DNA of 17,533 nt from a virus (IMGVR_UViG_2711768056_000003:1-17533); one strand, 5' to 3'; shown: positions 5,815 to 9,761, counted from the first letter of the stretch. The notes: generated from the sequence alone by a model not told the origin. Program-made: numbers and translations.

Positions 5815-7251
5815 TCAGAATCCTCCTTTCTTCTTGGACTGCGGTTCCTCGCGTTCACGTCGGCGCATTTCAGCAGACTGTTGGTCTGTGTCATAAATAG
5901 CGCCATTTGCCTGAATGCAATACACCGTGCCGGTATTGCCATGACGATTGAGACGAAGGATTAGTTCGGTTTCACCAGGTGGAACACTGTCATCAAAAGC
6001 GCCTTCACGATGGATCCCAACCCAATAATCGCAATCCTGTTCAATCTGCCCTGTATCTCGTGAGTCACTTGGTAATGGGCGTTTATTGGTTCGGCTTTCC
6101 AGTGCGCGGTTAAGCTGCGTCAGAAGCACAACAACGCAATCAAGCTCTTTGGCAAGGTTCTTCAGTCCTTTGGTGATCATGCCGTAAGCAAGGTCGTTGC
6201 GATCGGCCTTCTCAGCGGTCATTAGTGTCAGGTAATCGACCAGAATCATGCCAACACATCCTTTTTCTCGCTTGATTCGACGGCTTTCGCTAACGATTTG
6301 AGCCAGAGATAATCCCGGCGTGTCGTCGATGTAAAGCAGGTCGATTTCACTCAAACGATTAGCTGTTTCGATCGCCCTGTTGAAGTCACCATCGTAATCA
6401 CCCTGATAGCCGTCATCAGCGTCATTTGTCGCCGGAAGGTAAAAAATATTCGGGTTAACACCAGACTTCTGCCCTACCAGTTTTTCCAGTATCTGATCAC
6501 CTGGCATTTCAAGGCTGAACATCAGAGCGGGCTTTTTCTCATGCACTGCGCAGTTGATTGCCATCTGGCTGTATAGCGTCGTTTTCCCCATCTTAGGGCG
6601 AGCGCCAATGACAAACAGAGAGCCTTTCACCAGACCTTTCGGTGACAGCATCCTGTCCAGCGATGGGATCCCTGTGCTCATTCCTCGTTGTTCGCCTGAC
6701 GGGTCAAATCGCTTCTCAAGGTCGCTAACCCAGTCTTCCATGACCTCACCAAATGAGCGAAGGCCGCGACGCGATCCGGTTTTTGCATGGTCTGTCAGTT
6801 GCGTGAAAATCGCCTGAATAGCTTCGTACTTCTGCGTTGCAGTCATTCCGTTGCGGGAATAGAGCAATTCCGTCGCTTCAGTCATGCGGTTGATGGCGTA
6901 GCGTTCCATTGCGGTTTCACGAACCTGCATTGCATAGGCAACGATGTTTGCTGCGCTTGGCGTATTCTTTGCGATCTCAGCGATATAAGCAAAACCGCCA
7001 ACAGACGCCGTTAACGATTTACGCTCCAGTTCATCGAAAAGCGTCAGGCCATCTACTGGCTTTTGCTCCCGGTGCATTCTGGTTATTTCTTCGAAAAGGA
7101 TTTTGTGTGGTCGGCTGTAAAATGAGTCAGGCTTCAGCATCGCCAGAACTTTCTGGACGCGCTCACTGCTGTCATCATCCAGAAGCAATCCACCAATCAC
7201 CGCCTGCTCTGCCTCGATGCTATGGGGCGGCGCATAAAAATTATCGGTCAT
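5815..7251 (-). CDS. DnaB-family replicative DNA helicase (P22 gp12-like)
   Basis: Walker A GARPKMGKTT; DnaB N-terminal motif SIEAEQAVIGGLLLD; ATG start at MTDNFY chosen rather than the GTG at 7266. Confidence 0.9.
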   Translation of the reverse strand: MTDNFYAPPHSIEAEQAVIGGLLLDDDSSERVQKVLAMLKPDSFYSRPHKILFEEITRMHREQKPVDGLTLFDELERKSLTASVGGFAYIAEIAKNTPSAANIVAYAMQVRETAMERYAINRMTEATELLYSRNGMTATQKYEAIQAIFTQLTDHAKTGSRRGLRSFGEVMEDWVSDLEKRFDPSGEQRGMSTGIPSLDRMLSPKGLVKGSLFVIGARPKMGKTTLYSQMAINCAVHEKKPALMFSLEMPGDQILEKLVGQKSGVNPNIFYLPATNDADDGYQGDYDGDFNRAIETANRLSEIDLLYIDDTPGLSLAQIVSESRRIKREKGCVGMILVDYLTLMTAEKADRNDLAYGMITKGLKNLAKELDCVVVLLTQLNRALESRTNKRPLPSDSRDTGQIEQDCDYWVGIHREGAFDDSVPPGETELILRLNRHGNTGTVYCIQANGAIYDTDQQSAEMRRREREEPQSKKKGGF

Positions 7252-8140
7252 CGTGTTCACCCTCACGAACTTTCAGGTAGGTATTATCGTTAAGCAGGAA
7301 ATCAAATCCCTTTTTGTGCCAGACGGTTCCGCGTTGATGGTTTGGGCGCTCTTCGAACATCCATCGGCAATTTTCGCCAACGTAGCTCAAATAATTTCTC
7401 CAGTCCTGCATCGTGAACCCATGCCCGTCAAGCTGGCGGGTTATCACTCCGGCTTTGCGCCAGAACGTTCGGATCTGGTTTTTACGCTTGTCATTCAGTG
7501 CGCGGATTCTTGGAGCTTCGGGAAGGATTTCGTGGTAAGCATCGACAACATCCTGACAGCTGACGGAAGGTTTTTTCTTGTCAGACTTTTTGTCTGCTGT
7601 GGCACTCTCTAATACGTCAGTATTAGAGATAATATTATTATATTCTTTATCTGTGGTAATTTGCTGGTAATCTGCTGGTACAGCATTGCTTACAGGCATT
7701 GGTATTGCTGGCTTTGAGGTGGTAATTTGCTGGTAATCTGCTGGTACAAAATTTGACTGATAATCGTCATATTTCTCTACCGAGAAAACTGAGAATTTAC
7801 CGTGTGAAACCCAGTCAATCATGCCGAGTTTTTTGAACTTTCTAAGCAGGTACTGAACGCGATCTGGTTTGAGTCCTGTTTCAAACGCCAGAGAGTTTCT
7901 ACCGCCAAGTAGCTTCCCTCTGCCTACCAGAATTTCTCCTGCGTCAGTCATTACATACTCAGGCGTATGCTTTGCTTTGAGGATTAAGTGAACCCACAGA
8001 TGCGCTGCTTCTGCATCCTTGTAAAACGGCACATCCATAATTTTACGGTGCAGCAAGGCATACCCCTTACCGCTGCTTTGATGCGGTTGTTGTAGCCTTC
8101 TGGCCTCTCTGGCTTCGGCTAGATTAGATATGTTACTCAT
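7241..8140 (-). CDS. Replication initiator (O-like: N-terminal DNA-binding domain, repeat-containing linker, DnaT-like C-terminal domain)
   Basis: Immediately upstream of the helicase and downstream of cII; linker contains duplicated peptide [10 protein letters not shown] encoded by the iteron repeats; C-terminal region resembles the helicase-loading domain of phage initiators. Confidence 0.8.
7615..7760. repeat. Candidate phage origin of replication: iterons plus adjacent AT-rich segment inside the initiator gene
   Basis: Two perfect 30-bp direct repeats GTGGTAATTTGCTGGTAATCTGCTGGTACA at 7653..7682 and 7729..7758, each built of TGCTGGTA sub-repeats; further TTGCTGG copies between; AT-rich stretch 7620..7650 on the C-terminal side, as at lambda ori. 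Confidence 0.6.
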
Positions 8141-8279
8141 GACCTTTCTCCTTCTGCATCAGCTTCACTTTTTCCAACTCAGCCCGGAATCGACCAGGCT
8201 GCTTGAAGCTGGACAGGAAGCGATCACGTAGTATGTGTTTGTGAATTTTGTCCTGGTAAGGACTGAGTTGTTTTGTCAT
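8133..8279 (-). CDS. Small basic hypothetical protein (48 aa) between cII and the initiator gene
   Basis: Hand-translated [48 protein letters not shown]; SD AGGAG 7 nt upstream of ATG; stop overlaps the initiator start codon. Confidence 0.45.
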
Positions 8280-8311
8280 AATTACTCCTGTGGATTGATC
8301 CAGTAATTCCC

Positions 8312-8608
8312 TCAGAATTGCATATCAATTTGCTTAAAATCCTCGGTGGCGGCCGGGGATTTTTTCTTTGTGATTTCATCAAGCGCATACTTAAAAGCCC
8401 TGCTAATCGGACTGATGTCTGATGCCATTCCGAAAGCACACAAGACCGAAGCAATAAATCTCCAGTCCGTTCTGCTTATCTTCGATTCATGACAGCCAAT
8501 CATCTTTGCCAGACCGCGCTGGGTAAGCGTTGACAGGTTGATGAGTAAATCAGTTTCAGCGCGATCAACGTCACGCTGTGATAGTTTGCTGTAACTTGTT
8601 CTTTCCAT
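8312..8608 (-). CDS. cII: CII-like transcriptional activator
   Basis: 98 aa; C-terminus [18 protein letters not shown] parallels lambda CII KKRPAATERSEQIQMEF; HTH region present; located between cro and the replication genes. Confidence 0.8.
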
Positions 8609-8746: not shown

Positions 8747-8974
8747 TTATGCTGCCAGAAGGTTCTTTTTGCTTATTTCAAGCAATTCGCTTGCTTGATA
8801 TTTGCCACCAGAAATCTCTTCGATTTTTGAGGCGTATTTCGTTTTCCCAAAAAACTCAGTCTTAGGGAGGAAGCCGTTTTTGAGCCACTTATAGACAGCC
8901 CTTTCGCTAACTCCACAAGCCTTCGCAACTTCAGGGATGCCGACACCTTTAATCGGCTCATCAAGATTTTGCAT
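8747..8974 (-). CDS. cro: Cro-like repressor (HTH)
   Basis: 75 aa with HTH (IPEVAKACGVSERAVYKWLKNG); divergent from cI across the operator region; SD AAGGG upstream. Confidence 0.75.
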   Translation of the reverse strand: MQNLDEPIKGVGIPEVAKACGVSERAVYKWLKNGFLPKTEFFGKTKYASKIEEISGGKYQASELLEISKKNLLAA

Positions 8975-9053: not shown

Positions 9054-9761
9054 ATGGTTCAGAATGAAAAAGTGCGCAAAGAATTCGCCCAGCGGCTAGC
9101 GCAAGCCTGTAAAGAAGCTGGTCTTGATGAACATGGTAGGGGTATGGCCATAGCCCGTGCCCTTTCTCTTTCGTCCAAAGGCGTTAGCAAATGGTTTAAT
9201 GCTGAGTCTTTACCGCGTCAGGAAAAAATGAATGCGCTTGCGAAATTTCTAAACGTTGATGTTGTTTGGCTTCAGCACGGCACTTCGTTAAATGGAGCGA
9301 ATGATGAAGATACTCTTTCATTTGTTGGCAAATTAAAAAAAGGGTTAGTGCGCGTGGTTGGTGAGGCAATTCTTGGTGTTGATGGTGCCATCGAGATGAC
9401 CGAAGAGCGCGATGGGTGGCTCAAGATTTATAGTGATGATCCAGATGCCTTTGGTCTTCGTGTGAAAGGAGACAGCATGTGGCCCAGAATAAAATCAGGA
9501 GAATATGTACTCATTGAGCCTAACACCAAAGTATTCCCGGGTGATGAGGTGTTTGTCAGAACCATCGAAGGACACAACATGATCAAGATTCTTGGCTATG
9601 ACAGAGATGGAGAATACCAGTTTACAAGCATCAACCAAGACCACAGACCAATAACGTTGCCTTATCATCAAGTAGCAAAGGTGGAGTATGTGGCTGGTAT
9701 TCTGAAGCAGTCCCGCCATCTGGATGACATCGAGGCAAGGGAGTGGCTGAAAAGTTCGTGA
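9054..9761 (+). CDS. cI: CI prophage repressor (N-terminal HTH + C-terminal LexA/S24-like autocleavage domain)
   Basis: 235 aa; N-terminal HTH; C-terminal domain with GDSMWP serine motif and downstream lysine typical of S24 self-cleaving repressors; divergent from cro. Confidence 0.9.
   Translation: MVQNEKVRKEFAQRLAQACKEAGLDEHGRGMAIARALSLSSKGVSKWFNAESLPRQEKMNALAKFLNVDVVWLQHGTSLNGANDEDTLSFVGKLKKGLVRVVGEAILGVDGAIEMTEERDGWLKIYSDDPDAFGLRVKGDSMWPRIKSGEYVLIEPNTKVFPGDEVFVRTIEGHNMIKILGYDRDGEYQFTSINQDHRPITLPYHQVAKVEYVAGILKQSRHLDDIEAREWLKSS

Follow-up and report, generated by a model that had tools for sequence, protein, structure and literature searches.

A short open reading frame of 48 codons lies between cII and the replication initiator gene of a lambdoid prophage, at a point where phage lambda passes directly from one gene to the next. 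Is this frame a real gene, has it been overlooked, and what might it contribute at the head of a replication module? We examined these questions for orf48 of a 17,533-nt viral sequence (IMGVR_UViG_2711768056_000003:1-17533), the whole of which is called the window below. The analysis followed up an earlier note on the same DNA, which had described an unannotated, small, basic open reading frame with a strong SD and a suggested translational link to the initiator.

Gene Order and Translation Signals

The early region of the window is lambdoid, with cI on the plus strand and, in minus-strand order, cro, cII, orf48, an O-like initiator gene, and a gene for a DnaB-like helicase (Table 1). Taken over its full length, the window is mosaic, and the phages that it matches best, at 95-98% identity, are HK022, HK620, HK140, and their relatives. 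A repeat search located iterons (ori) at 7653-7753, in the middle of the initiator gene; the array comprises two 30-35-nt direct repeats, each with two GCTGGTAAT-type sub-repeats, and a rep_origin is annotated at the equivalent place in HK620. The replication module, which forms part of the early-right (pR) operon of a lambdoid prophage, thus has orf48 as its first cistron.

The frame that the earlier note had reported at 8133-8279 does exist: it runs from ATG to TAA over 48 codons, on the minus strand (the note had given no strand), between cII and the O-like initiator. Its product is a 48-aa protein of 5.8 kDa with a pI of 10.1 and a net charge of about +6, and was rightly called basic. The translation signals needed some correction. 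An AGGAG motif is present as described, but it stands 5 nt before the orf48 ATG, and the 7-nt spacing attributed to it belongs to the AAGGAG of the initiator. Likewise, the orf48 stop had been said to overlap the initiator start codon; the two frames do overlap by 8 nt (ATGAGTAA), but the stop codon itself does not cover the initiator ATG. Most of the divergent loci retain the context of the orf48 SD and start, cAGGAGtaattATG, and some have GAGGT variants; a purine-rich, SD-like sequence occupies the position of the initiator SD in homologs as well. An open frame of this size is by itself weak evidence for a gene, because about 10% of random 48-codon stretches are expected to be open (our own estimate); it is conservation that lifts orf48 above chance.

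Table 1. Features of the early region of the window, in order of position.
Feature	Position	Strand	Basis or remark
DnaB-like replicative helicase, third gene of the module	5815-7266	-	Pfam DnaB and DnaB_C; start codon from a mechanical listing, true start may be slightly downstream
O-like replication initiator, 299 aa	7241-8140	-	PHROG 345, E=1e-87; 99% identical to HK022/HK620 O
orf48 (DUF2740) CDS, 48 aa plus TAA	8133-8279	-	ORF list, Pfam PF10872, HK022/P22 identity, dN/dS
8-nt overlap of orf48 and initiator	8133-8140	-	Initiator ATG 8138-8140, orf48 stop 8133-8135
Right arm of predicted long-range helix, with initiator SD and AUG	8134-8157	-	MFE/centroid fold
Initiator SD, AAGGAG, inside orf48 codons 43-44	8148-8153	-	7 nt before initiator ATG
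Left arm of predicted long-range helix, orf48 codons 16-23	8213-8233	-	MFE/centroid fold
Candidate oop -35, TGGTAA (weak), inside orf48 codons 7-9	8254-8259	+	
Mosaic boundary sequence common to lambda (oop 5' end region, SD, ATG, first codons)	8269-8300	-	Lambda alignment
Candidate oop -10, CATAAT; its reverse complement, ATTATG, includes the orf48 start codon	8277-8282	+	P22 position, lambda alignment
orf48 SD, AGGAG	8285-8289	-	Read from sequence; 5 nt before ATG
cII, 98 aa, upstream neighbour of orf48	8312-8608	-	Pfam Phage_CII, E=6e-32
oop-like intrinsic terminator (hairpin and T-run), inside the cII 3' end	8336-8363	+	Terminator scan
cro	8747-8974	-	
cI	9054-9761	+	

A Long-Catalogued Member of the DUF2740 Family

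Database comparison leaves no doubt about the identity of the gene. orf48 matches the Pfam family DUF2740 (PF10872) with a score of 99.4 bits (cut-off 27) over 43 of 43 profile positions, and it matches PHROG 1913 with E=2.7e-28. It is 100% identical to orf48 of HK022, which UniProt lists as YO48_BPHK0 under the name 'Uncharacterized 5.8 kDa protein', and equally to its counterparts in HK620, HK630, mEp043, and many Stx phages; identity to P22 orf48 is 85%. The gene is annotated in P22 (orf48), HK620 (hkaW), and HK022 (gp53), and it has stood in the sequence records for decades, since P22 and HK022 were first sequenced. In these three phages it is the same gene, of the same length, in the same position after cII/oop, and with the same 8-nt overlap with the initiator as in the window, with no substantive difference; the order cII, orf48, initiator is also found in an Erwinia phage and in two further loci (L014 and L016). 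A tblastn search found orf48 in 127 of 50,697 phage records, the exact protein sequence occurs on at least 1,000 contigs, and the gene is present in 401 of 5,426 complete RefSeq E. coli genomes (approximately 7%). In a sample of near-full-length hits from these 401 genomes, all 14 carried the PGAP label 'DUF2740 family protein', and the older records of ST64T and BTP1 are among the few that omit the gene. The expectation that the frame was unannotated and would escape standard annotation is therefore contradicted by UniProt, Pfam, PHROG, PGAP, and the P22, HK620, and HK022 records: orf48 is an already known, long-catalogued, and routinely annotated gene, and was not overlooked. Its absence from lambda has also been noted (Hayes et al., 2012). 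Literature searches with DUF2740, PF10872, hkaW, and peptide strings returned sequence-level mentions only, with no functional work and no expression or genetic data for orf48 among them.

The DUF2740 family is narrow. Among 1.84 billion representatives clustered at 50% identity there were 18 matches, approximately six of them convincing clusters, and the clusters come almost entirely from enterobacterial genomes and their prophages. As a stand-alone protein of 48 aa, orf48 fits a family whose homologs measure 46-48 aa; entries in the databases that exceed this length result from read-through or from a wrongly placed start. A Rosetta-stone fusion was considered and rejected, as only one long protein (P0059, 152 aa) contains the domain and arises by read-through from c1 into orf48, and two further candidate members (P0060 and P0063) were discarded as repetitive-sequence noise. 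Two length variants were also seen, one of 58 aa with a 10-residue internal duplication (P0001) and one of 54 aa with a 6-residue KLKLKL-type insertion in helix 2 (P0039); together with P0059, these are probably pseudogenes or sequencing/assembly variants.

A different function is suggested by the label 'tail protein', which PHROG 1913 and many RefSeq phage records attach to the gene (e.g., NC_002730.1, L002:2501-2647). We rejected it on the grounds of the early-operon position of orf48 and the lack of tail similarity, no structural or sequence similarity having been found in a comparison with tail proteins; these observations indicate a propagated mis-annotation that traces to PHROG 1913. The stray name 'YnzC/DUF896' is likewise given to the DUF2740 protein in one source.

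Selection on the Protein and Its Predicted Structure

Conservation of the reading frame in related phages had been named beforehand as a check on orf48, and the frame is indeed kept. Across 10 divergent loci, reaching down to about 40% identity, dN/dS (Nei-Gojobori) lies between 0.10 and 0.46 in all informative pairs, and both the frame and the length of 46-48 aa persist even in the most distant pairs, where dS is saturated. Five residues (I16, L22, R30, R32, and V38) are invariant while being encoded by at least three codons each (3-5), with a CGA/AGG/CGG switch at R30. Judged from these substitution patterns, orf48 is a genuine protein-coding gene whose amino-acid sequence is under purifying selection. 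AlphaFold2, applied to the family alignment, returned a helix at residues 7-23, a loop at FKQPG, and a second helix at residues 28-44, with a mean pLDDT of 80, and the product is accordingly predicted to be a basic two-helix hairpin. No structural match was found between this product and the Rop/Rom helical hairpin or four-helix bundle.

The 5' Boundary and the oop Region

The statement that lambda has no gene at this position is correct, since lambda cII extends to 38653 and O begins at 38686. Alignment of the junctions revealed that lambda O and orf48 have the same boundary sequence, the same SD, and the same ATGACAAA, and that they diverge directly thereafter; within the start context only one base differs (GTCATT in lambda, GTAATT in the window). 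The translation start of orf48 is thus the one from which lambda translates O. Whereas in lambda it opens O directly, in the window it opens orf48, and the initiator begins 139 nt later, at another SD and ATG that are carried inside orf48. The Sf6 equivalent of the boundary is annotated as 'bsq5 boundary sequence', and one E. coli match (H167) covers the 32 nt of the boundary only.

The same segment carries signals on the opposite strand. In the curated P22 record, the oop promoter lies over the start of orf48 and the oop terminator lies inside the 3' end of c1. By analogy, we infer that the CATAAT hexamer at the orf48 start codon of the window is the oop -10 element. A consensus promoter scan called no promoter at the oop position of the window, because the -35 hexamer (TGGTAA) is weak. 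The terminator in Table 1 aligns with the cII 3' region of lambda, in which the lambda oop terminator is located (Hayes et al., 2012). An oop-like antisense RNA unit can accordingly be drawn at 8277-8370 on the plus strand, for which comparison with lambda oop predicts an RNA of about 79 nt; in Rfam searches, neither the region (E<=1) nor the whole window (gathering score) gave a match, and no oop model was matched. A small hairpin, GUCCU-N4-AGGAC, was also observed at 8250-8263 in the minus-strand mRNA (orf48 codons 6-10). It is paired in 96% of alignment cells, its one-sided changes all lead to G-U wobbles in the mRNA sense, and it coincides with the oop -35 region on the opposite strand.

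The 3' Junction and the Replication Modules Behind It

At its other end, orf48 contains the SD and ATG of the initiator that follows, together with the opening codons of that gene (usually Met-Ser-Asn, MSN). We classified 96 loci, most of which carry the exact orf48 allele of the window: the overlap junction GGTCATGAGTAA was read in 92 of them, and an initiator homolog was detected directly downstream in 94. The 8-nt overlap is kept in nearly all loci, and a 4-nt ATGA overlap is found in L014 and L015. Mosaic breakpoints flank orf48 at both ends. In five E. coli matches (H162-H166), nucleotide similarity to the window stops exactly at 8133, in the orf48 stop codon; taken with the boundary-only match at the 5' end, this points to orf48 as a separately recombining unit that supplies the translation start of the initiator.

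The most divergent locus (L016, GCA_004343195.1) separates the gene from its upstream neighbour. Two genes (more than 1.1 kb) lie there between cII and orf48, yet the 8-nt overlap with the initiator is kept, and this overlap, along with the 4-nt overlap of L014, argues that orf48 belongs with the initiator and not with cII. The insertion (L016:2927-4004) consists of a 30-aa ORF and a 249-aa gene; the latter had no match in Pfam and overlaps the start of the DUF2740 gene by 4 nt.

What follows orf48 is far from uniform. An HK022-type O and a DnaB-like helicase stand behind it in 45 of the 96 loci, a Phage_rep_O initiator and a toprim primase-helicase in 42, and P22 gp18 and gp12 in a few, while either type of cII may lie upstream. 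In one further arrangement (L100), a chimeric Phage_rep_O/lambda-O initiator is followed by a lambda P of 97% identity. Over its first 159 residues this initiator shows 99% identity to the Phage_rep_O type of mEp043, and beyond them it resembles lambda O; the locus (L100:4640-6240) cleanly illustrates a swap at the level of domains, by which the initiator C-terminus is matched to its loader. Near-identical alleles of orf48 therefore precede at least four different replication modules, and this indifference speaks against orf48 being the dedicated partner of a single phage replication protein. A narrower proposal, that orf48 is tied to phage-encoded helicases only, is rejected by the lambda P downstream of it in L100.

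A Second Gene Family in the Same Slot

orf48 is not the only small gene to occupy this slot. The ORFs Sf6 gp42, HK97 gp53, and ES18 gp58 encode basic proteins of 53-55 aa (pI 10.7) and occur in 97 phage records. Like orf48, they lie between cII/oop and the initiator, with the same boundary, SD, and ATG and with an overlap with the initiator start, and their first ~10 residues resemble those of orf48 (MTKRRKKYQEK). These approximately 10 codons common to both families are the boundary sequence itself, and homology to DUF2740 was rejected on the basis of an hhalign probability of 0.6% over two aligned columns. The AF2 model of the gp42 family also differs from that of orf48, with a pLDDT of 64 and a disordered N-terminus, and Pfam has no family for the Sf6 gp42/HK97 gp53 ORF. 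Loci of this type include L017:1311-1472 (Sf6 gp42), L023:2601-2762 (HK97 gp53), L019:1299-1463, and L018:1350-1508, the last being from Cronobacter phage ENT47670, in which the ORF is unannotated. Since an unrelated family can fill the slot and lambda has no ORF there, orf48 is optional among lambdoid phages, and the existence of lambda and other phages without a small ORF in the slot means that it is not generally essential.

Translational Coupling and mRNA Pairing

The overlap between orf48 and the initiator had been taken to suggest translational coupling. In its stop/start overlap (ATGAGTAA), the pair in the window is like known coupled gene pairs that overlap as ATGA or TAATG. In coupled pairs the downstream start is masked by the mRNA, and in the window the initiator SD and AUG are predicted to pair with the orf48 coding sequence. 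Folding of the mRNA between 8300 and 8100 gave z=-2.56, and the translation start region (TIR) of the initiator is paired in both the MFE and the centroid structure, through the long-range helix listed in Table 1. When 10 homologs were folded independently, the initiator start paired with the same conserved CGUGAyC stretch in nine of them. In the alignment, 81% of cells can pair, compared with 36-45% in slid controls, for a structure that was derived from one of the aligned sequences.

Two statistical examinations of this pairing gave a mixed picture. RNA covariation was not significant, as 116 of 500 shuffles reached the observed score; both helix arms hardly vary, on account of their coding or TIR role. 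Under synonymous recoding, natural TIR pairing exceeded the recoded mean in 9 of 10 homologs, three of which were individually significant (0.027, 0/150, and 0/150); for the window itself, the value of 0.68 against 0.61 in the control (fraction 0.34) was not significant. Sequestration of the TIR as a general property of the slot was not supported, since gp42-type loci give no such signal. The initiator moreover has a strong SD of its own (AAGGAG, at 7-nt spacing) and need not be coupled in order to be translated. In sum, coupling of orf48 to the initiator is plausible and its overlap geometry is conserved; the predicted TIR pairing is suggestive, and neither covariation nor recoding of the window is significant.

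Possible Roles of orf48

The explanation that we favour, and hold to be reasonably probable, is that orf48 is a translated first cistron that helps to set the translation of the initiator and also encodes a basic helical-hairpin protein with a target in trans that is not specific to any module. Ribosomes that finish orf48 would hand over to the initiator start or unmask it, and initiator synthesis would be set in part by the translation of orf48; long-range pairing of orf48 codons 16-22 with the initiator SD and AUG may assist this coupling. The 5.8-kDa basic two-helix product might, in addition, act in trans. Given that orf48 is indifferent to the initiator, helicase, or loader that follows, its target would more likely be a host component or a nucleic acid.

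Rather unlikely, by comparison, is a host-directed or anti-defence accessory ('moron-like') protein that sits in a permissive slot and is expressed early and in synchrony with replication, without a role in replication. The narrow distribution of the family, with its six or so real 50%-identity clusters of almost entirely enterobacterial origin, would suit such a protein, as would its optional nature (absent from lambda, replaced by the Sf6 gp42/HK97 gp53 family) and the occurrence of the same allele ahead of four different replication modules. On the other hand, the invariant overlap with the initiator and the linkage to the initiator apart from cII suggest more than a random slot. No PADLOC model was matched either, a result of little weight because that library describes defence rather than anti-defence proteins.

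The favoured explanation of a coupled first cistron with a product active in trans can be extended to a portable 'initiator-gating cassette', a proposal that is distinctly unlikely in its entirety. Here orf48 would be a mobile leader cistron between two recombination joints, supplying its own SD, ATG, and MSN codons to any initiator joined behind it by recombination; that start would be masked by a long-range mRNA helix until orf48 is translated, initiator synthesis would thereby be timed relative to the cII/oop decision, and the basic helical-hairpin product would also have a target, in the host or an RNA, that all lambdoid replication modules have in common.

A purely cis-acting leader ORF is another proposal, in which the act of translation alone matters (for coupling, insulation from oop/pO, or anti-polarity) and the peptide has no function. 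It draws on the conserved overlap geometry, the predicted sequestration of the initiator TIR, and the presence of two unrelated ORF families of similar size in one slot. We consider it very unlikely, because the dN/dS range of 0.10-0.46 was obtained with synonymous sites free to vary, the invariant residues are reached through three to five codons (including the CGN/AGG switch at R30), and a confident helical-hairpin model spans the conserved core.

The place of orf48 directly upstream of the initiator and overlapping it, together with its staying beside the initiator when parted from cII, could also be read as the mark of a cofactor dedicated to replication, such as a loader or adaptor, with the initiator or helicase next to it as its binding partner. 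This we regard as most improbable: alleles that are identical, or 98% identical, stand ahead of initiators with unrelated N-domains (HK022-type and Phage_rep_O) and of three different partners (DnaB-like helicase, toprim helicase, and lambda P), and homologous initiators work behind the unrelated gp42 family in Sf6 or, as lambda O does, with no small ORF at all.

Slighter still are the chances of a modulator of lysis and lysogeny tied to cII and oop, whether as a cIII-like protease decoy or as a Rop-like dimer on the oop:cII RNA duplex. orf48 does lie 32-36 nt after cII in most loci, its start overlaps the oop promoter, and its product is a predicted basic helical hairpin; but it combines freely with both cII types, it lies more than 1.1 kb from cII and behind two other genes in L016, and P22 has its own c3 gene, which we likewise count against this role. 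Finally, it is barely credible that orf48 is not a gene and owes its conservation only to the overlapping oop promoter, boundary sequences, and mRNA structure, since, although its 5' end overlaps the oop promoter and boundary, its last ~6 codons are the initiator TIR, and a few records leave it unannotated, codons 12-41 bear clear amino-acid-level selection and the frame is kept despite saturated synonymous divergence.

Concluding Remarks

As a discovery, orf48 is of no importance, because its Pfam family exists and its annotation is routine. Its value lies in being a conserved, selected small protein that heads the replication module of P22, HK022, HK620, and Stx-converting phages. To this, the present analysis adds that orf48 is a separately recombining unit supplying the translation start of the initiator, that it goes with any type of initiator, helicase, or loader behind it without preference, and that, as folding models suggest, its mRNA may mask the initiator start.
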